Assembly (NCBI GenBank): GCA_050954285.1
Contig: JBPBPL010000016.1
Span: 4,858-68,857 of the forward strand
Source of the DNA: Janthinobacterium lividum
GTDB lineage: Bacteria; Bacteroidota; Bacteroidia; Sphingobacteriales; Sphingobacteriaceae
DNA: 64,000 bases
Direction: 5' to 3'
Part shown: in pieces, positions 2,930 to 63,513 of the stretch
How positions within the stretch are numbered: the first letter of the stretch is position 1
How the letters are laid out: each line of letters begins with the position of its first letter
Made by a program: the position numbers and the translations under genes
The notes under the pieces: generated by a model
What the model was told of the DNA's origin: nothing
What the model saw: only the letters and a program-made list of their open reading frames with translations
Database searches by the model: none

Positions 2930-3024
2930 ATGCTTCTTTTATGCCTGTAAATTTTGTTTTTGAAAATTGATGCTTACATAAAAAAGCACAGTAAATTTTA
3001 AAATTCAAGTGATAAAAGAAGCAT
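2930..3024. repeat. 95-bp composite element bounded by inverted family-A motif copies
   Basis: ATGCTTCTTTTATGCCTGTAAATTT at 2930 (+) and GATAAAAGAAGCAT at 3011-3024 (-). Homologous along its length to 57763-57857. Confidence 0.9.
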
Positions 3025-3277
3025 TGAAGAAATCATAAATAAAATTTAAATGTGCTTTTAATTGTACAAAAGTTAGTTAAACCAATAGCTAGGCATAATG
3101 AGTATATAAATGCGAAATGTTAATATATAAATAGGATCTGCTTGTAAAAACAGATTGTCTTCATAAAATCTTTTTGACCCAAGCTTTCGTACTTATTTAA
3201 ACTAAAACTCATTTAATTAAAAACAAATATTATTTAGCTGTGTATATTTCGCATTAACTATTTAAAACCAATATATT

Positions 3278-3751
3278 ATGAAAACCAAATTATTATTTTC
3301 TACTGTTTTAGCTTCATTTTTATTTTTTTTGGGTGTGAAAGCAATTGATTCTCACTCGGCCAAAAAAGTTTATTCCAAAATTACTGCTGATGATAAAAGT
3401 GCGCTGATTGCCGAAGTGACCCGCAACATCGAATACGATTTTGCTAAAGCTTCTGTTAGAAAAAACTATTATGACAACCTGAATAAGCTGGCAAAAGTAG
3501 TGATTGATGATGATTATGTAATATCTCTTCGCGGACATGCAGATTCTATTGGTCAGTACAAACCGAACTGGGTATTGTCAGAAAAAAGAGCCGTAGAAGT
3601 AAAAGACTACTTGATTTCAAAAGGCGTTAAGAAAGACCGGATTGTAGCTATACCTTACGGAAGTACAATACCCATTGCAACAAATAAAACTGCTGAAGGC
3701 AGACAAAAAAATAGGAGAGTAGAAATTAAATTAAAGGAAATCAGCAAGTAA
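3278..3751 (+). CDS. OmpA-family (OmpA C-terminal-like, peptidoglycan-associating) protein
   Basis: Signal peptide MKTKLLFSTVLASFLFFLGVKA. C-terminal LRGHADSIG...SEKRAVEVKDYL...GRQKNRRVEIK is the classic OmpA_C motif set. Confidence 0.85.
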   Translation: MKTKLLFSTVLASFLFFLGVKAIDSHSAKKVYSKITADDKSALIAEVTRNIEYDFAKASVRKNYYDNLNKLAKVVIDDDYVISLRGHADSIGQYKPNWVLSEKRAVEVKDYLISKGVKKDRIVAIPYGSTIPIATNKTAEGRQKNRRVEIKLKEISK

Positions 3752-3792
3752 ACCTCATTTGCTGAGTCAATTAAATTTTTATAAGAACTCTA

Positions 3793-3806
3793 ATGCTTCT
3801 TTTATC
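3793..3806 (+). repeat. family-A dispersed motif copy
   Basis: ATGCTTCTTTTATCGTATTAAAATG, 42 nt after the OmpA-like stop. Confidence 0.9.
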
Positions 3807-4082
3807 GTATTAAAATGTGTTTACCTTAATAAAATAGTTTGATCAATAAAAGCAACAACATATAATTTTCGGTTTTATGTTGAAGGCAAAACCGGGTTTG
3901 TCCATTTGTAATTAAATTTAATTATTTTGAATTTTTGTTAAATGAACTCCTGATATAATAAAAATTTATCAGGAGTTCTTATATCGAACGATAAAAATTT
4001 TAATATAATCATCTATTTCTTATCAAATTTTTAAACTATTTTTGTATATTGTTTTTGCTATAAAACCTTTAAAATTCTTAAA

Positions 4083-4871: not shown

Positions 4872-4881
4872 TTTAATAACA

Positions 4882-9458: not shown

Positions 9459-10259
9459 ATGCCAAAATTGGTTTTATTACTTCGGATCAAAGACGGGATA
9501 TTTTTCGTTCAGGAATGGCTGAACAATGTAGAAAAATTGGTTGACGAAATTGTTGTGGTGGATAATGGGTCTACTGATGGTACTTTTGAGCTATTACAAG
9601 CGCACCCAAAAGTGGTTGATATTGACCGGACAGAAGGTTTCAACGAAGGCCGAGATAAAAATCTGGTTTATGCCATGGCCAGGAAACGAAATCCGGATTG
9701 GTGCCTTTGGATTGATGTTGATGAAATTTTTGAGCCAGAATTAACCAGAGCAGATTTCGACCGGTTAATGCTTAGAAAAGCAGTTAACAAGTATCGATTC
9801 AGGCGTTTTCATTTTATTGATCGGGAACACTTTGCAGGTTCGCCTGCCAGGCTACATTATTCTGCAGGGCATGATCGTGTGCTTTGGCGTGAATCTCCAA
9901 CAGGTTATTTTGAAGATTTCATTATTGATTCACCAATGGTGAAAGGTATAAACGGCATACAGATCAACACAGATTTCAGGATAAAACACTTAGGTTATAT
10001 TAACAAAGCCATTGTAGATCGAAAAGCAGATATTTATCGTGCCATCATTCCTGAAAAAGAAGAGACTTTTCAGGAAATGTATTTGCAAAATGAAAAAAAG
10101 ATAAAATGGGTCGATAAAAGAAGTAGTCCGGAAGTACGCAAACTCAATTGGTATTTATCTTATCTCCGACTGAAAACCTTACTGCCCAGAATTTTTAACA
10201 AAGTTTTTGGTATGGTAAAAAAAGCATTTATCAAAATTGGTCAGCCTCAAACAGTATAA
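9459..10259 (+). CDS. family 2 glycosyltransferase
   Basis: VVVDNGSTDGT nucleotide-sugar binding motif and a WIDVDE DxD-like motif. Confidence 0.8.
   Translation: MPKLVLLLRIKDGIFFVQEWLNNVEKLVDEIVVVDNGSTDGTFELLQAHPKVVDIDRTEGFNEGRDKNLVYAMARKRNPDWCLWIDVDEIFEPELTRADFDRLMLRKAVNKYRFRRFHFIDREHFAGSPARLHYSAGHDRVLWRESPTGYFEDFIIDSPMVKGINGIQINTDFRIKHLGYINKAIVDRKADIYRAIIPEKEETFQEMYLQNEKKIKWVDKRSSPEVRKLNWYLSYLRLKTLLPRIFNKVFGMVKKAFIKIGQPQTV
10113..10126 (-). repeat. family-A motif copy (13/14) inside the GT2 CDS
   Basis: GATAAAAGAAGTAG, read as V-D-K-R-S-S. Confidence 0.75.
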
Positions 10260-11614: not shown

Positions 11615-12673
11615 ATGAATTATATATGTACCTGGCTTTGTGCTGATAAAAAAGGTGAAGAAAGCGTGTTTTTCCAAACCGGCGAACTTTCATCCTCCCA
11701 AAAACATCAGAATATTTACTGGCGTTGCATCCTATTGTTTTACGTTACCAGCAAGCGTTTTAATAAACAGGAAAAGCACTTGTTATTTACCAACGTTAAA
11801 CAGTTGCCTAATGTAGATGGAAAATCCGTAGCAAATGTGTTGCATGAATTGGATGTAGAAGTAATTTATACAGATTTTAAATATAAAACACCCAGTAATT
11901 ATTTTGGTTCATTTCAGAATCAGTTTTACGAATTTTCCATACTGGAACATATCGCTCAAAATGATCGGAATTTACAAGATAATTATTTAATTGTTGATTC
12001 TGATTGCATTTTCATTAAGCCGATTCAACGGTTGTTTGATGCGGCCGGCCCGCAAGGTTTTATCTCTTTTGAAGATCCGGTTAAGCCAGATTATGTGATC
12101 AATGGTTTAAGCAGAAACGATCTGAAAACGATTTATCAGGAACTACTTGAAACTGAAATACCAGAAATTCCTTCCTACCATTTAGGAGAGTTTTTACTTT
12201 GTAGCGTTGAGAATATCCGAAAAATTTATGCTGATTTTGAAATCCTCTGGCCTCAATTACTGGAAAGAAACGAAAAAGGTTTGATGAAATTTAATGAAGA
12301 AGCGCATACTTTAAGTTATTTGTATTTCAAAAACGGATTTCGGGCAAGCACTGATACTTCTTTTATGAGGAGAATTTGGACGAATCCCGTTTTTTATCGC
12401 GAAATAAGAAGCTCTGATAGAAATTTGATTATCTGGCATTTGCCTGCCGAGAAAATATTTGGTATCTATACTTTGTACAATTTGTTTTTTCATAAATTAA
12501 CCAATTACGGTTTCCAAATTCCCAATCAGCAGTTTGTTAGTATTGTAGAAAAAGCAGTTAGTGTTCCGCGTTTATCTTTCAGGATGCGATTAAAATATTA
12601 TGCAGTTAGCTATTTTAAAGCTTTGAAAAAAAGATTTAAAAAAGTACCTCTTGTCAAAAGACTTTCTAAATAA
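11615..12673 (+). CDS. hypothetical EPS-locus protein, possible GT-A-fold transferase
   Basis: Long ORF co-oriented with the locus. LIVDSDCIF is a DxD-like motif. I recognise no specific family. Confidence 0.55.
   Translation: MNYICTWLCADKKGEESVFFQTGELSSSQKHQNIYWRCILLFYVTSKRFNKQEKHLLFTNVKQLPNVDGKSVANVLHELDVEVIYTDFKYKTPSNYFGSFQNQFYEFSILEHIAQNDRNLQDNYLIVDSDCIFIKPIQRLFDAAGPQGFISFEDPVKPDYVINGLSRNDLKTIYQELLETEIPEIPSYHLGEFLLCSVENIRKIYADFEILWPQLLERNEKGLMKFNEEAHTLSYLYFKNGFRASTDTSFMRRIWTNPVFYREIRSSDRNLIIWHLPAEKIFGIYTLYNLFFHKLTNYGFQIPNQQFVSIVEKAVSVPRLSFRMRLKYYAVSYFKALKKRFKKVPLVKRLSK
12354..12367 (+). repeat. family-A motif copy inside a CDS
   Basis: ATACTTCTTTTATGAGGAGAATTTGG, read as D-T-S-F-M-R-R-I-W. 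Confidence 0.85.
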
Positions 12674-14473: not shown

Positions 14474-14517
14474 ATACTTCTTTTATCACACAAAATTTAG
14501 GTTGATAAAAGAAGTAC
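14474..14517. repeat. head-to-head pair of family-A copies forming a 14-bp perfect hairpin
   Basis: TACTTCTTTTATCA (14475-14488) pairs with TGATAAAAGAAGTA (14503-14516), with a 14-nt loop CACAAAATTTAGGT. Located between the 14466 stop and the 14547 start. Confidence 0.92.
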
Positions 14518-19862: not shown

Positions 19863-19876
19863 ATACTGTTTTAATC
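19863..19876 (+). repeat. family-B variant motif copy (13/14)
   Basis: ATACTGTTTTAATCACCTCAAATTTAC, between the repeat-protein start and the yebC stop. Confidence 0.7.
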
Positions 19877-20723: not shown

Positions 20724-20737
20724 ATGCTTCTTTTATC
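20724..20737 (+). repeat. family-A motif copy, yebC/asd divergent intergenic region
   Basis: ATGCTTCTTTTATCGACTAAAAATTGG. Confidence 0.92.
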
Positions 20738-21843: not shown

Positions 21844-21852
21844 AAACAGTAT
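21839..21852 (-). repeat. family-B variant motif copy overlapping the asd stop codon
   Basis: GATAAAAACAGTAT. Reverse complement reads ATACTGTTTTTATC. Confidence 0.85.
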
Positions 21853-24740: not shown

Positions 24741-24754
24741 GATAAAAACAGTAT
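24741..24754 (-). repeat. family-B variant motif copy after the DJ-1/PfpI stop
   Basis: Reverse complement reads ATACTGTTTTTATCAATGTTTTTTTAG. The extension is shared with the 47249 copy. Confidence 0.88.
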
Positions 24755-42891: not shown

Positions 42892-42903
42892 GCTTCTTTT
42901 ATC
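42890..42903 (+). repeat. family-A motif copy overlapping the DUF1343 start codon
   Basis: ATGCTTCTTTTATCGAGTAAAAATTGA. The minus-strand ATG is the complement of 42889-42891. Confidence 0.92.
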
Positions 42904-44272: not shown

Positions 44273-44286
44273 ATGCTTCTTTTATC
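44273..44286 (+). repeat. family-A motif copy after the FtsX-like permease stop
   Basis: ATGCTTCTTTTATCGGTATAAAATTAGG. Confidence 0.92.
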
Positions 44287-45680: not shown

Positions 45681-48050
45681 ATGATGAGATACCATAAGCC
45701 GTTATCCTTGTTTTTTTTCCTGCCGATGATTTCTTTGGCACAAACAAATAAAAATCCTGTGCCGCAACTCGGAAAAAATACGGTAAAAGAAGTAGTTGCA
45801 GCCATGACGCTGCCTGAAAAAGCACGTTTGGTTGTGGGCATGGGTTTTAAAATGCCGGGGATGCCTCCACCCAAAAAAGGCGATACAACCAGCATGGATA
45901 TTGGCGGTTTCAAGTTGCCGCCTTCCGATCCAGATGCTTACAATATACCCGAAAAAGTGCCTGGTGCAGCTGGCCGACTGCATGGTATTGCGCGGTTAGG
46001 CATTCCTAGTATCACCGTTTCTGACGGCCCGGCGGGTTTACGCATTGAAGCGATCCGAAATAATGACAGCTCCAAAACGTATTATGCAACTGCTTTTCCG
46101 GTTGGTACGTTGCTGGCTTCGTCCTGGGATATTGATCTGGTAAAAAGAGTAGGCGTTGCTTTTGGCAGCGAAGTGCGCGATTATGGCGTAGATATTTTGC
46201 TGGCTCCGGCTTTGAATATTCATCGAAATCCACTGGGTGGACGAAATTTTGAATATTACTCTGAAGATCCATTGGTAGCAGGTAAAATTACGGCAGCTAT
46301 TGTGCAGGGAATCCAATCCAATGGCGTAGGAACTTCGATCAAACATTTTGCAGCAAACAATCAGGAAAGCAACAGGACCGGCGTAAATTCTGTGGTGAGC
46401 GAAAGAACCATGCGGGAAATTTATCTGAAAGGATTTGAGATCGCTGTAAAAGAATCTGATCCCTGGACAGTGATGTCATCTTACAATAAAATAAACGGAA
46501 CTTACACTTCCGAAAGGCCGGATTTGCTCACTACCATTCTGAAAAAAGAATGGGGCTTTAAAGGTTTTGTGATGACGGACTGGTTTGGCGGCAATAACCC
46601 TGTAGCACAAATGGCTGCCGGAAATGATTTGATCATGCCGGGAAGCCCGAAACAATCCGATTTGATAGTTGCAGCTGTAAAAAGTGGTAAACTCAGCATC
46701 AAACAACTCGACGAAAATGTAGAACGGATTTTGAATATCATTCTGAAATCCCCTACGTTCCGTAAATATCCGTATAATGATAAACCGGATTTGCGTGCCG
46801 ATGCACAGGTTTCCCGTTCGGCAGCCGCAGAAGGGATGATTTTGCTGAAAAACGCTGGTCAGGCGCTTCCAATCCAAAAAGGAAAAAAAGTAGCTGTTTT
46901 TGGCAATACTTCTTATGATATTATTGCAGGAGGAACCGGCAGTGGGGATGTAAATAAAGCGTACACCATTTCTTTGCTGCAAGGTTTGAGCAATGCTGGT
47001 TATCAGGTAGATAGAAGTATTGAAAACAGTTACAAAGCTTATCTGGTGGATGCCAAAGCGAAACGCCCAAAGCCAAAAAGCTTTTTTGAACCGTTGGCCG
47101 TGATTTCAGAACTGGAAAATAACCAGAACGTTGGTTCTGGTGCCGCAAATGATGAAGCCGCAATCATCACCATTGGCAGAAATGCCGGCGAAGGCGCAGA
47201 CCGGAAATTGGACAATGATTATTATTTGTCTGATGCCGAAAAAACATTGATAAAAACAGTATCGGCCGCGTTTCATGCGGTAAACAAAAAGGTAATTGTG
47301 GTGCTGAATATTGGCGGCGTAACCGATGTCAGCAGCTGGCGCGATCAGGTAGACGGCATTTTATTAGCTTGGCAGCCCGGAATTGAAGCTGGAAACGCAA
47401 TTGCTGATGTTTTATCCGGAAACGTAAACCCATCCGGAAAGCTGGCTACCACTTTCCCGATGAGTTACCAGGATGTGCCTTCTGCCAAAAACTTTCCGGG
47501 CACGCCTGCGGATAAACCGTTAAAAGTGGTTTATGAAGAAGGGATTTACGTTGGCTATCGTTATTACAACACTTTCAGCGTAAAACCAGCTTATGATTTT
47601 GGTTATGGTTTATCTTATACTACGTTCAATTACAGTAACTTAAAGCTGAGTAATGCTTCTTTTACCGATCATATTTCGGCATCTATTACCATCACCAACA
47701 GCGGAAAAGTGGCCGGGAAAGAAGTGGTACAACTTTACTTAACTGCGCCTGCCAAAATGATGGACAAACCGTCGGAAGAGTTAAAAGCATTTGCCAAAAC
47801 CCGATTACTGCAACCGGGCGAATCTCAAACGTTAAGTTTCAATATAAAAGCCTTGGATCTGGCTTCTTACGACACCAAAACTTCTTCCTGGGTTGCAGAA
47901 GCTGGAAATTATAACCTGAAAATTGGCGCTTCGTCTGTTAATATTAAGCAAACTGCAAGTTTTAATCTGCCTAAACAAATAGTGGCTGAAAAAGATACTA
48001 AAGCTTTAACGCCACAGGAAAACCTGACTGAAATGAAGAATAGTAAATAA
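45681..48050 (+). CDS. bglX: glycoside hydrolase family 3 beta-glucosidase
   Basis: KHFAANNQE and GFVMTDW (nucleophile Asp) motifs, a fibronectin-III-like C-terminus, and a signal peptide. Confidence 0.93.
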   Translation: MMRYHKPLSLFFFLPMISLAQTNKNPVPQLGKNTVKEVVAAMTLPEKARLVVGMGFKMPGMPPPKKGDTTSMDIGGFKLPPSDPDAYNIPEKVPGAAGRLHGIARLGIPSITVSDGPAGLRIEAIRNNDSSKTYYATAFPVGTLLASSWDIDLVKRVGVAFGSEVRDYGVDILLAPALNIHRNPLGGRNFEYYSEDPLVAGKITAAIVQGIQSNGVGTSIKHFAANNQESNRTGVNSVVSERTMREIYLKGFEIAVKESDPWTVMSSYNKINGTYTSERPDLLTTILKKEWGFKGFVMTDWFGGNNPVAQMAAGNDLIMPGSPKQSDLIVAAVKSGKLSIKQLDENVERILNIILKSPTFRKYPYNDKPDLRADAQVSRSAAAEGMILLKNAGQALPIQKGKKVAVFGNTSYDIIAGGTGSGDVNKAYTISLLQGLSNAGYQVDRSIENSYKAYLVDAKAKRPKPKSFFEPLAVISELENNQNVGSGAANDEAAIITIGRNAGEGADRKLDNDYYLSDAEKTLIKTVSAAFHAVNKKVIVVLNIGGVTDVSSWRDQVDGILLAWQPGIEAGNAIADVLSGNVNPSGKLATTFPMSYQDVPSAKNFPGTPADKPLKVVYEEGIYVGYRYYNTFSVKPAYDFGYGLSYTTFNYSNLKLSNASFTDHISASITITNSGKVAGKEVVQLYLTAPAKMMDKPSEELKAFAKTRLLQPGESQTLSFNIKALDLASYDTKTSSWVAEAGNYNLKIGASSVNIKQTASFNLPKQIVAEKDTKALTPQENLTEMKNSK
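47249..47262 (-). repeat. family-B variant motif copy inside the GH3 CDS
   Basis: Reverse complement reads ATACTGTTTTTATCAATGTTTTTTCGG. The gene reads L-I-K-T-V-S. Confidence 0.88.
47653..47666 (+). repeat. family-A motif copy inside the GH3 CDS
   Basis: ATGCTTCTTTTACCGATCAT, read as N-A-S-F-T-D-H. Confidence 0.88.
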
Positions 48051-48052: not shown

Positions 48053-48066
48053 ATACTTCTTTTATC
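48053..48066 (+). repeat. family-A motif copy 3 nt after the GH3 stop
   Basis: ATACTTCTTTTATCGGCATAAAATCAAG. Near-identical over 26 nt to the copy at 54292. Confidence 0.92.
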
Positions 48067-49143: not shown

Positions 49144-49157
49144 ATGCTTCTTTTACC
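49144..49157 (+). repeat. family-A motif copy supplying the ORF start codon
   Basis: ATGCTTCTTTTACCAGATAAAAATCC, translated as M-L-L-L-P-D-K-N-P. Confidence 0.9.
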
Positions 49158-49869
49158 AGATAAAAATCCGCTTTTTAATCACGACATAGTTCTGCTACTG
49201 GAAAAAGAAATTGCTGCGCTGGAAGCGGAATTAATTGCGCTGGAAACCGAAATCAATATTTTTCAGGCCCAGATCCGTTCTGCTTTATCGCCCCAGATTC
49301 TGCGTATTCAGGAATTGACAATCATTTATAAAAATCAAAAGCAGCTAAAAAAAATAAAGCGTTTAGAGCAGAAAAAGCGCGGGAAGAATTATCAAGAACC
49401 GGTTGGTTTGAAGGCGAATAATGCTTCTTTTATCGCACAAAATTTGGTTTCTGCAGATGAGCAGCAGGAATTGAAACGGTTGTATAAAGAAGCGATTGTA
49501 CAAGTTCATCCCGATAAGTTTGTGGATGCGGATGAAGCTTTAAACGAGCGGGCAACAGCGGTAACCAGTCAACTGATTGAAGTTTACAAAAGAGGAGATC
49601 TGGAAGAACTGAACCGTTTGCACGAACATATTATTAGTGGAAACGCGCTGACTTATCTGCCAGATCAGCCGGAAACGGTGAATGATCCGCAGGCGATGAT
49701 GCTGTTTTTACAGGATAAAAAACGTAAACTGCAAAAGCTGCTGCTGGAAATTAAAACTTCGGCTATTTATGAATTGTGGCTGAACCGGAAAGATATTCCG
49801 ACTTTGATTTCGGAATTGAAAATTGAGTTTGAGGAACGGATATTAATTTTGGTAAAACGAACCCAATAG
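49144..49869 (+). CDS. J-domain-like protein with N-terminal coiled coil
   Basis: LKRLYKEAIVQVHPDKF contains the HPD tripeptide. The start ATG is the first triplet of a dispersed-motif copy. Confidence 0.6.
   Translation: MLLLPDKNPLFNHDIVLLLEKEIAALEAELIALETEINIFQAQIRSALSPQILRIQELTIIYKNQKQLKKIKRLEQKKRGKNYQEPVGLKANNASFIAQNLVSADEQQELKRLYKEAIVQVHPDKFVDADEALNERATAVTSQLIEVYKRGDLEELNRLHEHIISGNALTYLPDQPETVNDPQAMMLFLQDKKRKLQKLLLEIKTSAIYELWLNRKDIPTLISELKIEFEERILILVKRTQ
49421..49434 (+). repeat. family-A motif copy inside the J-domain-like CDS
   Basis: ATGCTTCTTTTATCGCACAAAATTTGG, read as N-A-S-F-I-A-Q-N-L. Confidence 0.92.
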
Positions 49870-49925: not shown

Positions 49926-50690
49926 ATGGATATGATCACCAATACTGATTTTCAAAAGGAAGAAATCAACCCAAAAGAAACCCTGATTTTTCTACATTAT
50001 TTTGGCGGATCAGCGCAAAGCTGGCAATGGCTTGTTCCGCTTCTGCAAGAAGATTATAACTGTATTGCGCTGAGTTTGCCAGGTTTTGGTGAAGAACCAG
50101 CGTTGGATGAACCTTCGATTGCAGGCTTTACTTCTTTTATCATGCAAAAACTGGATTCAATGAATGTGGAATCTTATGTGTTGGTCGGCCATTCCATGAG
50201 TGGGAAAATTGCGGTAGATATGGCGGCCAATGATCCAAACTTTAGCATCAAACAATTGATTTTGGTTGCACCTTCTCCGCCAACTGTTGAACAGATTTCT
50301 GAAAAAAGCAAGCAGCAGATGCTTAATCATCCAAACCGGGAGCAAGCGGAAAAAACGGTGGAAAGTATCACTCTGAAACCCATTATGGAAGAACAGCGGG
50401 AACTGATCATCAAAAATAACCTGGAAGCGGACGATAAAACCTGGAAATGGTGGGTTTTGGAAGGTTCCAGTCATTCTATCGCCAATGATGATGAACATTT
50501 GTTTTTGCCGATTACGGTGCTTGCTTCGGAAGATGACCCGGCAATCAGTTTTGAAAGTGTTTTGGAAGAAAGTTTGCCACATCTGCCTGATGCTAAATTA
50601 GTTACGATAAAAGGAGTAGGACATCTGAGCCCGATAGAAGCACCGGAATGGCTGGCAGCGCAAATTCGGCAGGCCATTATCAAAGAGTAA
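49926..50690 (+). CDS. alpha/beta hydrolase
   Basis: GHSMSG nucleophile elbow and a C-terminal GVGHLSPIE histidine. The track begins at TTG 49884; the ATG at 49926 (MDMITN...) is more plausible. Confidence 0.8.
   Translation: MDMITNTDFQKEEINPKETLIFLHYFGGSAQSWQWLVPLLQEDYNCIALSLPGFGEEPALDEPSIAGFTSFIMQKLDSMNVESYVLVGHSMSGKIAVDMAANDPNFSIKQLILVAPSPPTVEQISEKSKQQMLNHPNREQAEKTVESITLKPIMEEQRELIIKNNLEADDKTWKWWVLEGSSHSIANDDEHLFLPITVLASEDDPAISFESVLEESLPHLPDAKLVTIKGVGHLSPIEAPEWLAAQIRQAIIKE
50128..50141 (+). repeat. family-A motif copy (13/14) inside the hydrolase CDS
   Basis: TTACTTCTTTTATCATGCAAAAACTGG, read as F-T-S-F-I-M-Q-K-L. Confidence 0.85.
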
Positions 50691-52554: not shown

Positions 52555-52568
52555 GATAAAAGAAGTAT
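52555..52568 (-). repeat. family-A motif copy after the methyltransferase-like stop
   Basis: Reverse complement reads ATACTTCTTTTATCGCCCTAAATTTATTG. Confidence 0.9.
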
Positions 52569-53213: not shown

Positions 53214-53227
53214 ATACTGTTTTTATC
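53214..53227 (+). repeat. family-B variant motif copy after the GNAT stop
   Basis: ATACTGTTTTTATCAGTCTAAATATCAGG. Confidence 0.88.
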
Positions 53228-53782: not shown

Positions 53783-54307
53783 ATGATATTTACAGAAAAC
53801 CCGGTTATTGTTACCCTCAAAATTAACGCAGAAGCTGCTGCTTATTTTACTGATTTGCGCAAGCAATATTTTCCTGCCGAACGCAATTATCTGGATGCGC
53901 ATTTAACGCTGTTTCATCATTTACCGGGCACTGAGCACTCTTTATTTGAGTTGGTAAAAACAGTATGTGCGCAGCAAAAACTACTATTGCTGCAAGTTGC
54001 ACAAGTAGTTAGCATTGGTGCAGGGGTTGCTTTTAAAATAGAATGCGAAGAGCTTAAAAAAATGCACAAAAATTTGCAGCAACAATGGCAGCAATGGCTT
54101 ACACCTCAAGATAAACAAGCACTTTGGCCGCATATTACGATTCAGAATAAAGTTGACCGTACAACAGCTTTAAAAACGCAACAACAATTGAGCACGAGCT
54201 TTCAACCTTTCGAAATTCAGGGTTTGGGATTATCATTTTGGGAATACCTTGGTGGCCCCTGGAAGTTACTGGAAACGGTTGATTTTATGCCGATAAAAGA
54301 AGTATAA
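53783..54307 (+). CDS. 2H phosphoesterase / 2'-5' RNA ligase-like protein
   Basis: Two HxT-type motifs, HLTLF and HITIQ. Confidence 0.7.
   Translation: MIFTENPVIVTLKINAEAAAYFTDLRKQYFPAERNYLDAHLTLFHHLPGTEHSLFELVKTVCAQQKLLLLQVAQVVSIGAGVAFKIECEELKKMHKNLQQQWQQWLTPQDKQALWPHITIQNKVDRTTALKTQQQLSTSFQPFEIQGLGLSFWEYLGGPWKLLETVDFMPIKEV
54292..54305 (-). repeat. family-A motif copy covering the last codons and stop of the 2H-phosphoesterase gene
   Basis: Reverse complement reads ATACTTCTTTTATCGGCATAAAATCAACC. The gene reads P-I-K-E-V-stop. Confidence 0.92.
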
Positions 54308-54746: not shown

Positions 54747-57464
54747 CTATTGTACTTTGTATCGGTAATTCATCCGGCCAATATTGCCGTCTTTATCAAT
54801 TCCTTCGGCAATTACGCGATAATTTCCTTTGCCATCAGCATTGTAAAACTCAAAAGAAGCGTTACCTTTTTCATCTGTTAGCACGCGCGGATTCCAGTAA
54901 ATGGTGCTCCGGTAATCTAAGCCTTGCATCGTGCTGCGGGTAACTTCGTATTTGGGCGAATAAAAAACACGGCTGCTGGTATAGCCTTTCGGCACAAAAG
55001 TAACCTTGCCCGGGTTCGGGATCAGATCCTGAATATCTTTCATCGATACTTTTTTATGCTCTACTTTTTTCATATTTACCACCAGTACGCCATTAGTGCC
55101 ATAAGTACGGTTGATGCCGCTTAAATCATCTTTTAAAAATACTTCAATAGATTCGATTTCAGCTGATTGCAAACTATTTAAGTAAGAAATATCTACCGGC
55201 ATTCCACCTACAAAAGCCTGAACCGGCGTTTTGTTGCCAGCCTGGTAATCCCGGCGCACGTACAGGTTATTATCTACATAAGTTAACCCGAACAAGCTGC
55301 CTTGCAAGCAAGTTAAAAACATGGCACAATCCATCAGCCTGTTTCCAGGGATCAATTGATCGGGGATCATACTCAAACCGGTTAAAGCCGGGTAATCTAC
55401 GTGGCTCGGTTTTTTCACCTCAACTACGCCCTTAATAGTTACCTCTTTAAGCGTGCGGCCATTAAAATATTGCTTTTTACCATTTTGCAGATAAACGTTC
55501 AGCGTACTATCTATATTCAGCACCTCATCCGGCTGCTCCGGATTTTTGTTGACAGCCTGCGCAGCGGTTCCGCTAAGCGTAATCATCATATTTCTATTTC
55601 CTGTACTTCCACCGGCAGTCAGAATTACTTTAGATGAATCCCGAACCAGCACTTTTGGAAAGGTAAAAATACCGTTGGTATTGGTTACCACCTGGGTAGA
55701 AAAATTATGATCAGGCACCTGTAATTTTACCACACCACGTGACAGCGGCAAACCGGAAAGATCCCGTAAAGTACCGCTGATATCGATACCAGCCTCCGGG
55801 TAAAAAGTAATTTCCGGTGAAGTGCCAGCGAGGATGGCCTGGTAATTAAACCTGCGGTACCCTTGTGTCAGCATGAGCACATCCAGTTCGGCAGCAGTTT
55901 GTTCATGTGGGTTTTTGAAGTAATAATTGGGTTTTTCGATATACCCTTTTAGTTCGGAAGTGAGCAAAAGATTAGTCATGATGGTTGTTTCTGCATTTTC
56001 ATCAAATGGAACCTTACTCTCATCAATTACCGCAACCGATAAGTTGGCTTCCGACGGCACCGCTTTATTTTTAGCTGTTACGTTGATTTTGACTTTTTCG
56101 CGGGTAACGTATGCTGTTTTTACCGAACTTAAATTGATACCCAACTGATCGTTGTGCTGAATGAAGACAATGCGTTCTGAAACCGGATGCCCATCCGCAG
56201 AGAACAACGTTAGTTGCACAATCCCCGTTGGGAATTTACTTTTCGGAATCGAAGCACTGTAAACTAAAGCCTGTAAAGGTGTTTTTGCTGCATAACAAAT
56301 AATGCCGCTGCTGCGTGCAATAATGTAAAAAGATTTGTTCTGGTATTTTTTTAGAAAAGTATCATTGGTGGAAATTCTCAAGAATAAATTATTCTCATCC
56401 GTATTATTTATTCCCATACTGATGCCTTCGCTCATTGCTTTTGGCAGGTTAAGGGTTGATTTTGAGCCATCTGCAAAAGTCAAATTTGCCCGGTAGGTTT
56501 TACCAGCTTCGGGTATCAGTGCAAAAGTGCCCATTCCTAAACTGGAACCTGATAAATCTGCCACTGTTTTGCCATCATTATCAACCACCGTACCTTTTGC
56601 ACTAATGCCTAAACCATTGCCAGCTAAAGCTTTAAAAGCAATTTTTGTACTGATGCCGGTAATCAGATCACCGCCTTCCGGGAAAAATTGAACATCAGGC
56701 GTGGCCGTTGCCGTACGTAAAAAAAATGTGTTGGTAGTTGTTTTTTTATCATTGGTAATAACCGTAAATAAAGTTCCGGTAGCAAGTGCTGTACCTGGTT
56801 TTGTATTGATATTGATTGGTAAAAAACCATTTTGATCGGTTGTGCCTTTGCCTTTTGCTACGGTTTCATAATCCACTTCTACATGCCAGCTTACTTTTTT
56901 GTTGGCATAAGGTGTGCCGTTTCCATCTTTATAATAAATGCCGGCGTTGGCTTTGGCGGGATTATCTTTTGCAGCACCTGAAAATGCTATTTTGGTGAGT
57001 ACTGTATTCTCCACTAAATCGCCAATAGCAATATTTTTATTAAAGAAATAATCCGGATCGTAGTTGCGCATATAGTTGGTATAAGCGCGGATATGATAAT
57101 TGCCCTGTTTGTAAACCAAGGGCTGCAAAGTAATATCGGCAGAAGCAATGCTGTTGACAACAGGCAATTTCAGGCTTTCTATCAATGAATCCCGGTTGGT
57201 ATAAACATCTATATAAACAATTTTGCTTAGTAAGGATGGCTCGTGCAAACCGGCAGTAAGGTAGGCTTTGAACCAAATGGTATCGCCAACCGCATAATAA
57301 GGCTTATCAAAGTGAAGGTAAACTTTTTCGACTGGATGATCTTCTGTAAACTTGGCCGTTTTGGCAATAATAGTGTTTAAACTAACGGTATCCTGAGCAA
57401 AAAGGGTAGAACTGAAAACGGCAAATAAAAAAAGTGTACAGTATAAAAACCTGGCCAAGCGCAT
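54747..57464 (-). CDS. large secreted protein (MG2/carboxypeptidase-regulatory-like N-terminal domains, Plug-like region near the C-terminus)
   Basis: Signal peptide ending FAQ. KVYLHFDKPYYAVGDTIWFKAY is MG2-like. IESIEVFLKD...YGTNGVLVVNMKK is Plug-like. Confidence 0.75.
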   Translation of the reverse strand: MRLARFLYCTLFLFAVFSSTLFAQDTVSLNTIIAKTAKFTEDHPVEKVYLHFDKPYYAVGDTIWFKAYLTAGLHEPSLLSKIVYIDVYTNRDSLIESLKLPVVNSIASADITLQPLVYKQGNYHIRAYTNYMRNYDPDYFFNKNIAIGDLVENTVLTKIAFSGAAKDNPAKANAGIYYKDGNGTPYANKKVSWHVEVDYETVAKGKGTTDQNGFLPININTKPGTALATGTLFTVITNDKKTTTNTFFLRTATATPDVQFFPEGGDLITGISTKIAFKALAGNGLGISAKGTVVDNDGKTVADLSGSSLGMGTFALIPEAGKTYRANLTFADGSKSTLNLPKAMSEGISMGINNTDENNLFLRISTNDTFLKKYQNKSFYIIARSSGIICYAAKTPLQALVYSASIPKSKFPTGIVQLTLFSADGHPVSERIVFIQHNDQLGINLSSVKTAYVTREKVKINVTAKNKAVPSEANLSVAVIDESKVPFDENAETTIMTNLLLTSELKGYIEKPNYYFKNPHEQTAAELDVLMLTQGYRRFNYQAILAGTSPEITFYPEAGIDISGTLRDLSGLPLSRGVVKLQVPDHNFSTQVVTNTNGIFTFPKVLVRDSSKVILTAGGSTGNRNMMITLSGTAAQAVNKNPEQPDEVLNIDSTLNVYLQNGKKQYFNGRTLKEVTIKGVVEVKKPSHVDYPALTGLSMIPDQLIPGNRLMDCAMFLTCLQGSLFGLTYVDNNLYVRRDYQAGNKTPVQAFVGGMPVDISYLNSLQSAEIESIEVFLKDDLSGINRTYGTNGVLVVNMKKVEHKKVSMKDIQDLIPNPGKVTFVPKGYTSSRVFYSPKYEVTRSTMQGLDYRSTIYWNPRVLTDEKGNASFEFYNADGKGNYRVIAEGIDKDGNIGRMNYRYKVQ
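56111..56124 (+). repeat. family-B variant motif copy inside the large secreted-protein CDS
   Basis: ATGCTGTTTTTACCGAACTTAAATTGATACC. The gene reads V-K-T-A-Y. Confidence 0.8.
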
Positions 57465-57560: not shown

Positions 57561-57631
57561 ATGCTGTTTTTAACGCATAAAAAAAACGACGGACAATTTA
57601 GCCGTCGTTTTTTAGTAGATAAAAGAAGTAT
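57561..57631. repeat. 71-bp long imperfect palindrome: family-B copy (+), GC stem-loop, family-A copy (-)
   Basis: Left arm is ATGCTGTTTTTAACGCATAAAAAAAACGACGG. The right arm's reverse complement is ATACTTCTTTTATCTACTAAAAAACGACGG. Confidence 0.9.
57586..57613. terminator. bidirectional terminator; serves the minus-strand GH-A-like gene
   Basis: AAAAAAA-ACGACGG-ACAATTTAG-CCGTCGT-TTTTT, embedded in the 71-bp palindrome. Confidence 0.75.
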
Positions 57632-57762
57632 TGTATTCGGTTACTGATAAACAAAAATTTATTTTGTCAAATATTTGTTGAGCCAGATCAATAAAGATAT
57701 TTAACCATTAATTATTTTTAAAGTAAAGCTAAAGCCTGCTTAATTTCCATCAAAAAATGCTT

Positions 57763-57857
57763 ATACTTCTTTTATACCTGTAAATTTCGGTTTGTAACCG
57801 ATACCATTAGAAAAAAGTACAATACCTTTCACAATTTTAGGTCGATAAAAGAAGCAT
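57763..57857. repeat. 95-bp composite element bounded by inverted family-A copies
   Basis: ATACTTCTTTTATACCTGTAAATTT at 57763 (+) and GATAAAAGAAGCAT at 57844-57857 (-). Same length and shared internal blocks (GAT.C...A.AAAAAAG.ACA) as 2930-3024. Confidence 0.9.
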
Positions 57858-57910
57858 CAAAAAAATCCTGAATGAGATTTAAACAGACTTTGCTCTTTAA
57901 TTAATTACAA

Positions 57911-60629: not shown

Positions 60630-60929
60630 TCAACGTGCAAAATATAAACTTACAGCTATTGCATACAAAAAAACATCTGCTGTAAAAACGTATAAGTACA
60701 TCTTCCAAATTGCGTACCCTGCATTGAGGTAATAGTAATTTGTTTTGTTGGAAAAATAGTGTTGGAAGTAAACCGATGAGGCGTATCCAATTAATTTGAA
60801 CATCACACTAAAACCAGAGAATCCAAGTCCATATATCAATATTCCTTCAAATCCAGCTATGCTAAATAACAGGTTCCAAATAAATAACGGTCTCCAAAAT
60901 AAGACTATAAGTTTCCAGGTTTTGTGCAT
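60630..60929 (-). CDS. small membrane protein (3 predicted TM segments)
   Basis: 99-aa hydrophobic ORF ending 11 nt upstream of the ABC ATPase start. Confidence 0.5.
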   Translation of the reverse strand: MHKTWKLIVLFWRPLFIWNLLFSIAGFEGILIYGLGFSGFSVMFKLIGYASSVYFQHYFSNKTNYYYLNAGYAIWKMYLYVFTADVFLYAIAVSLYFAR

Positions 60930-60937
60930 TGATTAAA

Positions 60938-61693
60938 TTAAGCATACTTAAATAAACCCAACTGCATACTGTTTTTATCGCCCATATTTTGGGTTCGAAT
61001 TTGGTTGACCAGCAAATGTGCTTTGCGCGTAGGATCGGGAATGCGGTAACCGGTGATGCATTGTTTGATGATGGCTAAGCTTTGTTCCAGATTGATGCGG
61101 TGGCCGGGAGAAATGAAAACGGGATTTACTTTGTTTTTGGTACGCAATGCTGCACCGATTACTTCATCGCGGTCGTAAATTAAACTTTCTGAACCAGCTT
61201 TTTCCGGCAAAGGTTCAAACTTTCCGGTGAGTAAACTTTTGGCACAACCCATTGTCGGGCTGTCTGTTATCAAGCCAAAATGTGTAGCAATGCCCATACG
61301 CCGTGGGTGCGCAATTCCTTGTCCGTCCAAAACCATTAAATCCGGTTTTATTTTGAGCTGGTTCCAGGCTTTTAGCAACGAAGGAATTTCGCGGAAAGAA
61401 AGCAAGCCAGGAATATATGGAAAGGTTGTTTTGCTAATGATGGTTGATTTTTCAATTTCCTGCAAATCCGGAAAACTCAAAACAATGATGCCGGCATAAA
61501 CCGTTTCTTCATATTTATTAAAAGAAATATCGGCATCGGCGATGGTTTGGATTGGTTTTGAAAGCGGCTCGATGCTGATTTGGGTACGCAATTGTTTCTG
61601 CAGTTCAATTGCCTGAGCAGGAGAAAGTTGTTCGTATTCTTCAACAGAAATTTGTGGCATAAAAGAAGCATTTCGATTTAAGCCAGTATCCAT
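60938..61693 (-). CDS. nfi: endonuclease V (deoxyinosine 3' endonuclease)
   Basis: ADADISF..., SFREIPSLL and VLDGQGIAHPRRMGIATHFG motifs. Confidence 0.9.
   Translation of the reverse strand: MDTGLNRNASFMPQISVEEYEQLSPAQAIELQKQLRTQISIEPLSKPIQTIADADISFNKYEETVYAGIIVLSFPDLQEIEKSTIISKTTFPYIPGLLSFREIPSLLKAWNQLKIKPDLMVLDGQGIAHPRRMGIATHFGLITDSPTMGCAKSLLTGKFEPLPEKAGSESLIYDRDEVIGAALRTKNKVNPVFISPGHRINLEQSLAIIKQCITGYRIPDPTRKAHLLVNQIRTQNMGDKNSMQLGLFKYA
60966..60979 (+). repeat. family-B variant motif copy inside nfi
   Basis: ATACTGTTTTTATCGCCCATATTTTGG. The gene reads G-D-K-N-S-M. Confidence 0.85.
61658..61671 (-). repeat. family-A motif copy inside nfi
   Basis: Reverse complement reads ATGCTTCTTTTATGCCACAAATTTC. 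The gene reads N-A-S-F-M-P-Q-I. Confidence 0.88.
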
Positions 61694-61768
61694 AAATTTT
61701 TAAAAATGTTTCAGTTCAAATCAAACCAAATCTTTTTAAATACTGATGAATTCAGTTTACAATCAAAA

Positions 61769-62341
61769 CTATAAATGCGTATTGCTTCTGAAAAGTTTGA
61801 TGGAAATAGCCAGCAGGATAATACCGAAAGCTTTTCGCAAAACGCTTAACCCGGTTTTGCCCAATAATCTTTCCAGCACTTGCACGTTTTTCAATACCAG
61901 ATAGACAAAAATGGTATTCAAGGTAATTCCAACTAAAATATTTTGCGTCTGATATTCTGATTTTAGAGAAAGCAAGGTCGTCATGGTTCCGGCGCCGGCA
62001 ATTAAAGGAAAAGCCAACGGAACGATAGAAGCGGTAGAAGAAATTTCCTCTTCCTTAAATAATCTGATGCCTAAAATTAATTCCACAGCGATCACAAAAA
62101 TAACCAGCGAACCGGCGATGGCAAAAGAAGCAACATCCAGATTGATAATGGCCAGGAGCTGATCTCCTACAAAAAGAAAAATGATCATCAGCACCAAAAC
62201 GGTTAAAGCTGCTTTTTCAGATTCAATTTTTCCAGCTTTTTGTCGTAAATCAATGATGATCGGGATGGTGCCTATAATATCAATGATGGCAAAAAGAATC
62301 ATGGTGACAGAGAGGATTTCTCTAGGATTGAATGTTAGCAT
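61769..62341 (-). CDS. MarC-family membrane protein
   Basis: Six TM segments in 190 aa. The IFAIIDIIGTIPII opening is typical of UPF0056/MarC. Confidence 0.85.
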   Translation of the reverse strand: MLTFNPREILSVTMILFAIIDIIGTIPIIIDLRQKAGKIESEKAALTVLVLMIIFLFVGDQLLAIINLDVASFAIAGSLVIFVIAVELILGIRLFKEEEISSTASIVPLAFPLIAGAGTMTTLLSLKSEYQTQNILVGITLNTIFVYLVLKNVQVLERLLGKTGLSVLRKAFGIILLAISIKLFRSNTHL

Positions 62342-63513
62342 GGTTTTATCGGATTACTTTTTTCCTGTGATCTTAAAAGAAAGGTATATAAAAAACCAGC
62401 CAGAATTAAAAATGCGGATAAAAAGAAAACATAATGCACAGAAAAACCGGAGATCAAACCTGCACTGATCGGACCTAAAATTTGCCCAATGGAAGCATAC
62501 GACTGGTTGATACCCAAAGTTTCTCCTTGTTCACTTTGATCAACCCGGTCAGCAATAATGGAATTTAACATCGGGTTTCGCACACCATTAAACAAGCCGT
62601 AACCGCACATGCATGCCGCAAAGAAAATTAGTTTGGTAGCAAAACCGGAAAGCAGCATTGCCGCAAAACAAAAAACAAGTGATAAAAGAAGTATTAGTGT
62701 TCGGGAAGAAATCAGTTTGGTAATATATGGAACAGCCAGCTGCATAAGAATGCCGGAAATACCAAAGCCGGCAAAGAAAACGCCAATTTGAAAAGGCGTA
62801 ATTTTCAAAACATCTGCTGTGAAAGTCTGGAAACCGATAATCATGGTGAACTGCGCCATTGTCAATAAAAAGCCGATAAAAATAGCACTGCCTACAACTG
62901 GTTTTTTTAGTACGGTGACCAGAGATTTGAAGCTGAATTTACTCTCGTTCTTACGTTCGTGTTCGGGATTGGTTTCCTGTAAAAAAAAGTAGGTACATAA
63001 TACGCCGATCAAAGCTATTCCTGCCGAAAAGTAAAACGGTGCCTGCAAACTTACTTTACTTAAAACGCCACCGATAGCAGGCCCGATAACAAAACCAAAG
63101 CCAAAAGCCGAACCGATGATGCCAAAGTTTTTGGCGCGGTCTTCCGGCGTTGAACTATCTGAAACCATTGCTTGTGCTACAGAAATGTTTCCGCCGGTAA
63201 TGCCGTCTAAAATCCTGGCAGCAAAAAGCATAATTAAACTCCGTGCTTCTGCAAAAAGGACAAAAGAAATGCAGGTACCAATTAGGCTGATAATTAATAT
63301 TGGTTTGCGACCATACTTATCCGACAGCGAGCCTAAGACCGGTGTGGCAAAAAACTGGGCGATGGAAAATGATGCGGTTAATAAACCTAAAGTTTGCTCG
63401 GTGATGCCAAACTGCTTGCCGTAAGGATAAATCAGCGGAACGATTATGCCAAAACCTAAAGAGTTGATTACGCATATAAAAACCAGCACCCATAAGTTTT
63501 TATTATTTTTCAT
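62335..63513 (-). CDS. MFS transporter (TetA/DHA1-like)
   Basis: Twelve TM segments and the GSLSDKYGRKP motif A. Overlaps the MarC gene by 7 nt. Confidence 0.9.
   Translation of the reverse strand: MKNNKNLWVLVFICVINSLGFGIIVPLIYPYGKQFGITEQTLGLLTASFSIAQFFATPVLGSLSDKYGRKPILIISLIGTCISFVLFAEARSLIMLFAARILDGITGGNISVAQAMVSDSSTPEDRAKNFGIIGSAFGFGFVIGPAIGGVLSKVSLQAPFYFSAGIALIGVLCTYFFLQETNPEHERKNESKFSFKSLVTVLKKPVVGSAIFIGFLLTMAQFTMIIGFQTFTADVLKITPFQIGVFFAGFGISGILMQLAVPYITKLISSRTLILLLSLVFCFAAMLLSGFATKLIFFAACMCGYGLFNGVRNPMLNSIIADRVDQSEQGETLGINQSYASIGQILGPISAGLISGFSVHYVFFLSAFLILAGFLYTFLLRSQEKSNPIKPC
62681..62694 (-). repeat. family-A motif copy inside the MFS CDS
   Basis: Reverse complement reads ATACTTCTTTTATCACTTGTTTTTTG. 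The gene reads I-L-L-L-S-L-V-F. Confidence 0.88.

Follow-up and report, generated by a model that had tools for sequence, protein, structure and literature searches.

A bipartite DNA motif found about once per kilobase in the Mucilaginibacter arboris clade resembles DNA uptake signals and is partly carried by what looks like a small mobile element

We analyzed a stretch of 64 kb of bacterial DNA (the window) in which an asymmetric word of 14 nucleotides (nt), followed by an A/T tract, occurs about once per kilobase, both within and between genes. An initial annotation of this DNA had singled out the word and likened it to the uptake signal sequences (USS) of Pasteurellaceae and the DNA uptake sequences (DUS) of Neisseriaceae. 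Our favored interpretation, to which we would give nearly an even chance, has two parts: an uptake-signal-like sequence that has been spread by molecular drive, and an element similar to miniature inverted-repeat transposable elements (MITEs) that carries two copies of it. Although systems of this kind are known, none is known in Bacteroidota or with these features, and the motif itself is undescribed. In the literature that we searched, neither the motif nor uptake sequences in Bacteroidota are mentioned.

The core of the motif has two forms, which we name by core positions 6-7: the TC form, ATRCTTCTTTTAYC, and the GT or sister form, ATRCTGTTTTTAYC. Expected numbers for the window were obtained from dinucleotide-preserving shuffles. 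For ATRCTTCTTTTAYC there are 25 exact matches where 0.01 are expected and, at no more than one mismatch, 46 where 0.20 are expected, the maximum in any shuffle being 2; the large excess over chance that had been claimed is therefore real. A k-mer census of the window revealed ATRCTGTTTTTAYC as a second word of the same shape, with 23 copies at no more than one mismatch, and this corresponds to the sister variant mentioned by the initial annotation. Pooling both forms gives 66 distinct copies, or 1.03 per kb. As had been described, they lie both in intergenic DNA and in unrelated housekeeping genes, with 38 of them inside open reading frames (ORFs) and the remainder intergenic. Core positions 6-7 read TC in 25 copies and GT in 12, while TT, CC, TG and GC are nearly absent, so we regard these as two discrete forms and not as a degenerate position. 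Each of the 37 copies listed previously (22 on the plus strand, 15 on the minus strand) was recovered at its coordinate in our mismatch tables, but the list omitted nine further copies with a single mismatch (8999, 10214, 25345, 25592, 31113, 33902, 37142, 41189 and 45782). The degenerate copies reported at 15139, 41761 and 48692 are also genuine, having two mismatches or one indel and a retained flank.

Alignment of the window copies on the core outlines a bipartite unit of ~28 nt, consisting of the 14-nt core, ~5 variable bases and a strict A/T tract; in consensus form, ATRCT(TC|GT)TTTTAYC, ~5 free bases and W3-5. In a logo of the 66 copies, the invariant core is followed by a purine at position 15 and then by four free bases. 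All 66 copies have A or T at positions 20-22 (counted from the first base of the core), positions 23-24 are mostly A/T, and position 27 is commonly G. Beyond ~28 nt, the flanks of different copies do not align with one another, and we accordingly rejected the possibility of a longer repeat around every copy. The tract of intergenic copies is almost always A, reading TAAAAATTGG; in copies inside genes, A-rich and T-rich tracts are about equally frequent. Because both are used in genes, the requirement seems to be for A/T richness and not for particular bases, and this richness is apparently needed roughly one helical turn from the T tract of the core. The 3' extension YAAAAWTTKG that had been proposed is thus real, but only W at positions 20-22 is required, the variable bases number about five, and the A's are not fixed. 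A single unit has no hairpin: the folding energy of its consensus is 0 to -2 kcal/mol, a value also reached by shuffled sequences, in line with the earlier view of a non-palindromic core with an A/T flank.

The window's ClpB protein is 93-97% identical to proteins of Mucilaginibacter and Sphingobacteriaceae metagenome-assembled genomes (MAGs). It is 95% identical to the ClpB of Mucilaginibacter arboris and 87-88% identical to that of other Mucilaginibacter species. These identities place the host in the M. arboris clade of Mucilaginibacter. We compared syntenic loci from three ingroup genomes with those of three outgroups, namely M. xinganensis, M. hurinus and strain HMF5004. Each of the three ingroup loci holds 26 to 34 copies per 22.6 kb. 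In the three outgroup loci, the TC form does not occur, the GT form has 0 to 2 copies, none with an A/T tract, and no other word is over-represented. One exact ATACTGTTTTTATC each is found at L117 1279 and L118 16470 (loci of related genomes are given by an L and a number; both of these are outgroup loci). Since these single copies have no A/T tract and probably arose by chance in A/T-rich DNA, we consider it unlikely that the GT form was ancestrally present at a low level.

We also scanned 185,579 species genomes, using the core plus an AAAA flank as the query. Among the matches listed, almost all blocks belonged to eleven members of the M. arboris clade, and the remainder were single chance matches. 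In at least 11 other clade genomes the density is 0.8-1.2 copies per kb, on both strands; each of the eleven holds both forms, with the A/T tract present in 92-100% of copies. Motif-bearing genomes include M. arboris HMF7410 and several lichen-derived MAGs, and one complete MAG chromosome of 3.7 Mb was matched at seven widely separated positions, with further blocks scattered over many contigs. Among the matches listed, motif-bearing genomes have a ClpB that is at least 93% identical to that of the window, compared to 87-88% for motif-free sister species. Given at least 11 dense genomes and sister species without the motif, the enrichment is genome-wide and clade-wide, and its boundary is sharp. 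It is therefore not limited to the window, and a comparison of relatives that the initial annotation had proposed finds the motif common to close relatives and absent from the syntenic loci of sister species. A scan of viral contigs gave only single chance matches, and the one viral contig with three weak matches had neither the A/T tract nor similarity to the clade, so that phage or plasmid cargo was rejected as an origin.

Two MAGs titled Janthinobacterium lividum (JBPBQN01 and JBPBQV01) hold the motif at full density (loci L014, L021, L032, L040, L050, L063, L083-L085, L108 and L112), and ClpB proteins named "MAG: Janthinobacterium lividum" in the protein search are 95-98% identical to the window's ClpB. 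These two bins look like mislabelled members of the Mucilaginibacter clade. The motif could thus serve as a reliable clade marker in metagenome bins, as its exposure of these two MAGs illustrates.

For further statistics we used a clade sample of ~900 kb of DNA that contains 925 copies, counting as in-gene those copies within ORFs of at least 100 amino acids. By this definition, 361 of the 925 copies (39%) are inside ORFs, which is ~70 times the chance level by our own estimate from the window shuffles. They read mostly as NASF/NAVF (118 copies), antisense xKEA (122), MLLL (56) and antisense DKRS (52). Two frames are avoided, namely the one interrupted by a stop codon (4 copies) and the one that encodes Cys-Phe-Phe-Tyr (9 copies). 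Because four reading frames and both strands are in use, a repeat at the protein level was rejected.

In codon alignments with the three motif-free outgroups, the genes are collinear, with zero indels at every site aligned. The clpB gene is an instance of a purely synonymous change: a ten-residue peptide is the same in ingroup and outgroup, while its codons include GTG ATA AAA GAA GTA in the ingroup alone and GTT ATT AAA GAA GTT in M. xinganensis. In two genes under weaker constraint, the ingroup peptide itself has been altered to match the motif. A DUF3822 gene has FLSVKEAD in the ingroup and YLDTQAGD or FLNVQTDE in outgroups, with no indel, and at its second copy PDAVFTPEN corresponds to HDDLYQDNK or PESIYNDAQ. 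In an rsmD-like gene, also free of indels, ingroup PNAVFT corresponds to PKIVAA or PKLVFE. These alignments show that copies inside genes arise by synonymous and amino-acid-changing point substitutions and not by insertion.

The copies inside genes are also conserved beyond their surroundings. Orthologous in-gene cores are 96% identical, compared to 82% for coding DNA between the same species, and most of the differences among them occur at the degenerate R and Y positions. We additionally shuffled synonymous codons within each window ORF, which preserves both the protein and the codon usage, and is a control that the initial annotation had recommended. The shuffled ORFs retain 3.6 copies at no more than one mismatch and 0.54 exact copies, as against 38 and 18 observed, meaning that ~90% are lost. 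This removal of most copies by codon shuffling implies that the constraint acts on DNA, on either strand and in unrelated housekeeping genes, which in the window include thrC, clpB, fmt, namZ, a GH3 gene and a histidine kinase gene.

In the clade sample, 482 copies are on the plus strand and 443 on the minus strand, and the in-gene copies comprise 183 that are co-oriented with their gene and 178 that are antisense. Strand preference is not significantly correlated with GC skew (Spearman rho 0.14, P = 0.15); the ratio of plus to minus copies is 57:43 where blocks have a positive skew and 53:47 where their skew is negative. The two orientations without strand polarity that had been noted in the window are thus general in the clade, and because strand bias is not linked to GC skew, we rejected a polar word of the Chi or KOPS type.

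Although copies occur readily in genes, their density is far greater between them. Intergenic DNA makes up 14% of the clade sample and holds 61% of the copies, with 4.4 copies per kb versus 0.47 per kb in ORFs, a difference of ~9-fold. Spacers between convergent genes are the most densely occupied, at 6.1 copies per kb, and those between divergent genes the least, at 3.3 per kb, and the most populated spot is 0-20 nt past a stop codon, with 147 copies, as expected from the earlier remark that many copies are close to stop codons. The copies at 45551 and 48053 are situated between a stop codon and a GC-rich terminator hairpin. In addition, compact inverted pairs recur in the clade sample at fixed registers of 16, 30 and 12 nt and form terminator-like hairpins. 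One of them, at 39001-39030, makes a 16-bp hairpin with a T run after it, consistent with the suggestion that inverted pairs double as terminators. We considered promoters, but the extension only loosely resembles the Bacteroidota -7 box TAnnTTTG, and there is no -33 TTTG at the proper distance. Moreover, the presence of copies in both orientations within genes rules out promoters, and matches in a sigma-70-like scan are at the level of shuffles. Searches for tRNAs and for Rfam families found no tRNA and no match at gathering thresholds.

A subset of the intergenic copies has a further level of organization that the initial annotation, accurate as to single copies, had missed. Among adjacent convergent copies, the spacing has a sharp peak at 70-82 nt, which includes ~60 of 118 pairs. 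There are 64 distinct doublets of 76-113 nt in the clade sample, and they are typically inverted and ~95 nt long. Their arms have a long form of the unit, ATGCTTCTTTTAYC-NCC-TAAAAATTGGTG, and are nearly all of the TC form with an A tract, the GT form accounting for 3 of 127 arms. The doublet interiors, of ~35 nt, are mostly unrelated to each other, although 29 of 2016 pairs of interiors are more similar than all 2000 shuffles, and the similar pairs include some within one genome (i.e., paralogous). An outer inverted repeat, GCCTGTTTAAAT, accompanies about half of the doublets and is located ~31 nt outside the core on at least one side. The doublet and outer repeat together constitute a composite element of ~160 nt; the outer repeat on its own is not enriched in the window. 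An E-value scan of a composite element for RNA families gave nothing credible. Two composite elements are present in the window:

2899..3058, no strand: composite element 1, outer inverted repeat GGAGCGTTATTTAATT ... AAATTTAAATGTGCTT around a doublet
2930-2943 plus and 3011-3024 minus: arms of composite element 1, an inverted doublet that forms a long hairpin (z = -3.4)
57731..57892, no strand: composite element 2, outer inverted repeat AAGCCTGCTTAATTT ... AGATTTAAACAGACTT around a doublet
57763-57776 plus and 57844-57857 minus: arms of composite element 2

In L130, the orthologous spacer lacks composite element 2 and has a plain terminator in its place. Using syntenic loci, we resolved the presence or absence of doublets for two spacers (blocks of 8 kb gave few orthologous pairs). 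One composite of L001 has no counterpart at the orthologous position in the window, L002 or L119. At a different site, L119 has a full doublet, and the window and L001 keep one arm. ATTAG is present on both sides of one element and CTTA(A/C) on both sides of another, others have none, and no consistent target-site duplication was seen across composites. No gene is bracketed by two full arms within 4 kb anywhere in the 900 kb, and for these two reasons we rejected a parent transposon. Given a turnover by indels with neither a consistent target duplication nor a bracketed gene, the composites look like a small mobile, or at least duplicative, element with two motif copies. They are best seen as a MITE-like element that carries, or may have captured, the signal.

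Among established processes, only biased uptake combined with homologous recombination favors a word everywhere in the genome, on either strand and in one lineage. As far as sequence features can indicate, the unit is most likely a double-stranded-DNA signal of ~28 bp that is the preferred substrate for sequence-biased import or integration of relatives' DNA, and it would be a functional analogue of the USS and DUS. We envision that members of the M. arboris clade would have a DNA receptor, at the cell surface or in the periplasm, that binds the core, with the A/T tract easing the bending of the DNA. Motif-bearing fragments would be imported and recombined more often than motif-free ones. As a result of this preference, point mutations that create or improve a motif would be over-transmitted, by molecular drive and not by selection at each site. 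Copies would accumulate wherever they are tolerated, i.e., in the 3' untranslated stretches past stop codons and in the four in-gene frames that give acceptable peptides. The separate intergenic MITE-like element of ~160 nt, with its two inverted TC copies, would add to the intergenic count and turn over by insertion and deletion. The initial USS/DUS-like reading therefore accounts for density, use of both strands, clade limits, origin by substitution, codon tuning, conservation and enrichment at 3' ends, but it needs the composites as a second component.

A more specific hypothesis is that this is the first DNA uptake signal outside of Proteobacteria. On this view, the bipartite signal of 28 bp would have originated in a single Mucilaginibacter lineage associated with lichens and bark, and either core form would be accepted. 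Its receptor would bear no relation to ComP-type pilins, and a small mobile element would have captured the signal for spread between cells. We consider this conjecture plausible, though rather likelier to be wrong than right. Riemerella columbina, which also belongs to Bacteroidota, favors its own DNA when DNAs compete for uptake, with no signal sequence identified (PMC7965970). This self-preference makes sequence-selective uptake in Bacteroidota plausible.

Among comparable known systems is the USS, whose Haemophilus influenzae core is AAGTGCGGT, with A/T-rich flanks. Both motifs occur about once per kb on both strands, and both have a non-palindromic core with helically spaced A/T tracts in a unit of near 30 bp. 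Both also have in-gene copies produced by substitution in tolerant frames and protein regions, are restricted to close relatives, and form inverted pairs at gene ends. However, the present motif belongs to Bacteroidota and is known from sequence only, its core is longer (14 nt), there are two core forms per genome, its intergenic excess is much stronger, and some copies are on a composite repeat of ~160 nt. The DUS (ATGCCGTCTGAA and its dialects, bound by the minor pilin ComP) is similar in being a word of 12-14 nt found about once per kb, with clade-specific dialects, a strong intergenic bias and inverted pairs used as terminators; the shared ATGC start is coincidental. In contrast to our motif, the DUS has no A/T-tract flank, dialects in Neisseria differ by species instead of coexisting in each genome, and the system is defined by ComP and type IV pili.

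Several observations weigh against an uptake signal. Neither natural transformation nor competence in Sphingobacteriaceae is reported in the literature that we searched. A crude pattern screen of ~1.1 Mb of the loci that we retrieved found no ComEC-like or prepilin-like ORF, to which we give little weight because the sample is small. Each genome has two discrete core forms (TC and GT, with almost no TT or GC), which is atypical of the USS or DUS of one genome. Many intergenic copies are in doublets, whose spacing of 70-82 nt, outer repeat, paralogous interiors and indels are traits of mobile repeats. The ~9-fold intergenic excess surpasses that in H. influenzae. Finally, polysaccharide-synthesis loci are often exchanged horizontally, and recently acquired islands had been suggested as places where the motif might be lacking. 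The low-GC (0.30-0.35) polysaccharide-synthesis cluster at window positions 4083-18733 has 1 exact in-ORF copy versus 17 in the rest of the window; this tendency to fewer copies is a trend only (P ~0.06, our own Poisson estimate).

We also weighed an explanation in which an abundant protein binds the unit throughout the chromosome, and the sites are kept by selection without DNA import. Such a protein might structure the nucleoid, act in termination or at 3' ends, or be a domesticated transposase, and it might be related to the factor that mobilizes the composites. A strict core with an A/T tract one helical turn away would suit a protein that bends DNA, the concentration of copies right past stop codons and beside terminators could reflect such a role, and the same 28-nt unit forms the inner arms of the composite, as transposase-binding sites would. 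We nonetheless consider this explanation unlikely. Several thousand 14-nt sites in each genome, hundreds of them within genes, would have to be preserved by selection despite amino-acid and rare-codon costs, and with so many sites each would contribute very little, which for USS is the classical argument for drive over selection. Known sites for nucleoid proteins or segregation, such as parS, matS, NBS and SBS, number in the tens per genome, not ~1 per kb. In addition, the in-gene copies are neutral in orientation relative to transcription.

Self-propagation or self-marking might also proceed by some mechanism other than uptake, e.g., a Chi-like signal for the protection or recombination of incoming or broken DNA, or a sequence-specific repair bias as proposed for HIP1. 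This would account equally well for in-gene copies that are made by substitution, conserved and tuned by codon choice, and for the restriction to one clade. HIP1 (GCGATCGC, of cyanobacteria) is likewise hyper-abundant in and between genes, is kept at orthologous sites and is not explained by codon usage. However, HIP1 is an 8-nt palindrome of unknown function without a flank, while the present motif is asymmetric, longer and bipartite. There is also no GC-skew polarity of the kind seen with Chi or KOPS. Chi sites have 5-8 nt, far fewer than the 14 specified bases and tract of the motif, and we know of no repair system with a recognition sequence this long. We therefore regard a mechanism of this type as quite unlikely.

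Lastly, all copies might be remnants of one family of repetitive extragenic palindromic (REP) sequences, REPINs or MITEs, the full elements being the composites of ~160 nt and the single copies being decayed half-sites. Like REP/REPIN systems, which are mobilized by RAYT (IS200/IS605-like) transposases, and MITEs such as the neisserial Correia elements, the intergenic doublets have a sharp peak in spacing, hairpin potential, variable but sometimes paralogous interiors, indels and half-elements. The convergent pairs peaking at 70-82 nt, the 29 interior pairs above the best of 2000 shuffles, the repeat GCCTGTTTAAAT on at least one side of about half of the doublets, the presence or absence of elements at orthologous spacers, and half-elements where a relative has a full doublet all point in this direction. 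However, doublets with a characteristic spacing, as in REPs and REPINs, are found only for a subset of intergenic TC copies, and inverted repeats with presence and absence, as in MITEs, only for the composites. The suggestion in the initial annotation of half-sites of a REP or MITE family is accordingly correct in part for the intergenic doublet subset and fails for the 39% of copies inside genes. These 361 of 925 copies align collinearly with motif-free orthologues, without any inserted base, and with such copies made by substitution, it is not the case that every copy is part of one longer mobile element. REPs are extragenic palindromes, whereas a single unit of our motif is no palindrome (0 to -2 kcal/mol) and has no REP tag GTAG or CGTC. 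The GT form, a quarter to a third of copies, is nearly missing from doublets (3 of 127 arms). We found no RAYT gene, transposase or consistent target-site duplication in the loci analyzed, and no long element around a gene in 900 kb. The copies inside genes, the rarity of the GT form in doublets and the non-palindromic unit make a purely mobile repeat very improbable.

To our knowledge, sequence-specific DNA uptake is known from only two proteobacterial families, and questions about its origin, its receptors and the roles of drive and selection have been argued from these. If an uptake signal is indeed the explanation, the clade would represent an independent case in Bacteroidota, with a sharp phylogenetic boundary and a cultured type strain, M. 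arboris HMF7410. A receptor could then be sought by comparing gene content across the motif boundary, and one could ask whether an uptake bias is enough by itself to remodel codon choice and protein sequence. The motif would also offer a practical tool for genetic work in a group in which transformation is not established. Whatever its function proves to be, an asymmetric 14-nt word that is present in hundreds of genes at a cost in amino acids has few parallels.

The individual copies in the window, outside of the composite elements, are as follows (one-mismatch copies with neither TC nor GT at positions 6-7 are given with their bases at these positions).

3793..3806, plus: TC, exact; intergenic, 41 nt past a stop codon
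7255..7268, minus: TC, 1 mismatch; intergenic, 31 nt past a stop codon
8999..9012, minus: one mismatch (CC at 6-7); in ORF 7863-9428
10113..10126, minus: TC, 1 mismatch; in ORF 9459-10259
10214..10227, minus: one mismatch (TT at 6-7); in ORF 9459-10259
12354..12367, plus: TC, 1 mismatch; in ORF 11615-12673
14474..14517 (14474 plus, 14504 minus): compact convergent pair of the TC form, 7 nt past a stop codon
16502..16515, plus: TC, exact; in ORF 15830-16978, reads MLLLS
18995..19008, plus: GT, 1 mismatch; in ORF 18888-19838 (minus strand), internal repeat
19271..19284, plus: GT, exact; in ORF 18888-19838 (minus strand), second copy of the internal repeat
19863..19876, plus: GT, 1 mismatch; intergenic
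20724..20737, plus: TC, exact; intergenic, full extension GACTAAAAATTGG
21839..21852, minus: GT, exact; overlaps the asd stop codon
21901..21914, minus: GT, 1 mismatch; intergenic, with 21839 brackets a terminator-like hairpin
23713..23726, plus: TC, exact; in thrC, reads YASFT
24741..24754, minus: GT, exact; intergenic, adjoins a terminator-like hairpin
25042..25055, plus: TC, exact; in amine-oxidase-family ORF 24810-26288, reads NASFT, kept in L001 and L012
25345..25358, plus: one mismatch (TT); in ORF 24810-26288, kept in L001 and L012
25592..25605, minus: one mismatch (CC); in ORF 24810-26288, identical in L001 and L012
26488..26501, plus: GT, exact; in histidine-kinase ORF 26386-27732
27149..27162, plus: TC, 1 mismatch; in ORF 26386-27732, reads NASFS
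29285..29298, plus: TC, exact; intergenic between two convergent stops, with an L001 copy at the same site
31113..31126, plus: TC, 1 mismatch; antisense in clpB, made by codon choice
32020..32033, plus: TC, exact; intergenic
32087..32100, plus: TC, exact; at the stop codon of a helicase gene, kept in L001 and L002
33853..33866, plus: GT, 1 mismatch; in the DUF3822 gene (ingroup PDAVFTPEN)
33902..33915, minus: TC, 1 mismatch; in the DUF3822 gene (ingroup FLSVKEAD)
34776..34789, plus: GT, exact; in the rsmD-like gene (ingroup PNAVFT)
36137..36150, minus: TC, 1 mismatch; intergenic half-element, where L119 has the full doublet
37142..37155, minus: one mismatch (GC); in a phosphoribosyltransferase gene, protein motif STGKSS kept in the outgroup too
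37661..37674, minus: TC, exact; in ORF 37410-37802
39001..39030 (39001 plus, 39017 minus): overlapping palindromic pair of the GT form, 16-bp hairpin and T run, 9 nt past a stop codon, terminator-like
40096..40109, minus: TC, exact; intergenic, 9 nt past a stop codon
40782..40795, plus: TC, 1 mismatch; antisense in the formyltransferase gene, identical in L001
41189..41202, plus: one mismatch (TG); antisense in the formyltransferase gene, identical in L001
41480..41493, plus: GT, 1 mismatch; in the formyltransferase gene, identical in L001
42812..42825, minus: TC, exact; near the namZ 5' end, reads MLLLS
42890..42903, plus: TC, exact; at the annotated namZ start
44273..44286, plus: TC, exact; 28 nt past a stop codon
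45551..45564, plus: TC, exact; stop codon 16 nt upstream, terminator hairpin 45575-45597 after it
45782..45795, minus: TC, 1 mismatch; in the GH3 gene
47249..47262, minus: GT, exact; in the GH3 gene
47653..47666, plus: TC, exact; in the GH3 gene, reads NASFT
48053..48066, plus: TC, exact; 2 nt past a stop codon, upstream of terminator 48078-48103
49144..49157, plus: TC, exact; just past terminator 49103-49125, its ATG being the first start of ORF 49144-49869
49421..49434, plus: TC, exact; in ORF 49144-49869, reads NASFI
49699..49712, plus: GT, 1 mismatch; in ORF 49144-49869
50128..50141, plus: TC, 1 mismatch; in ORF 49884-50690
52555..52568, minus: TC, exact; in a 40-nt spacer, 3 nt past a stop codon
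53025..53038, minus: TC, 1 mismatch; in ORF 52578-53195
53214..53227, plus: GT, exact; intergenic, directly past a stop codon
53953..53966, minus: GT, exact; in ORF 53783-54307
54292..54305, minus: TC, exact; runs into the stop of ORF 53783-54307, reads PIKEV*
56111..56124, plus: GT, exact; antisense in ORF 54747-57464
57561..57631: GT (57561 plus) and TC (57618 minus) that bracket a GC-rich terminator hairpin, 57618 being kept in L130
59286..59299, plus: GT, exact; antisense in ORF 59162-59959
60966..60979, plus: GT, exact; antisense in ORF 60938-61693
61658..61671, minus: TC, 1 mismatch; in ORF 60938-61693, identical in L107
62681..62694, minus: TC, exact; in ORF 62335-63513, identical in L107

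Some of these copies deserve comment. The copies at 18995 and 19271, at a distance of 276 nt, have 3' flanks that are identical over ~60 nt, in an unannotated ORF of 316 amino acids. Because they belong to the internal repeat of one gene, they are duplicates and not independent copies. An ATG within the motif is at or near the start of namZ (42812 and 42890) and of ORF 49144-49869. For this reason, the motif may have misled the annotation of some N-termini (MLLLS...), or else it may provide start codons.

The spacer between the phosphoribosyltransferase and NUDIX genes (window 36067-36748) measures 680-940 nt in the ingroup, and the two genes abut in M. hurinus. In the ingroup, this spacer contains a conserved ORF of ~56 amino acids and then a terminator-like hairpin. 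The genes of the polysaccharide cluster include one for a Wzz/GNVR tyrosine-kinase-like protein (4882-7209) and one for a WecB/TagA glycosyltransferase (18005-18733).

In L131 (OZ241747.1), an "intergenic" stretch of 1 kb at 11171-12209 holds an uncalled ORF with an HNH-nuclease-like motif (LDHIIPVKLGGGGCWLNNYQLLCHNCHVQKT), which adjoins one doublet and one single motif copy. HigB/HTH toxin-antitoxin modules are inserted at different sites in the ingroup genomes L002 (4767-5563) and L119 (12722-13326), and the module in L002 is directly beside a motif doublet.

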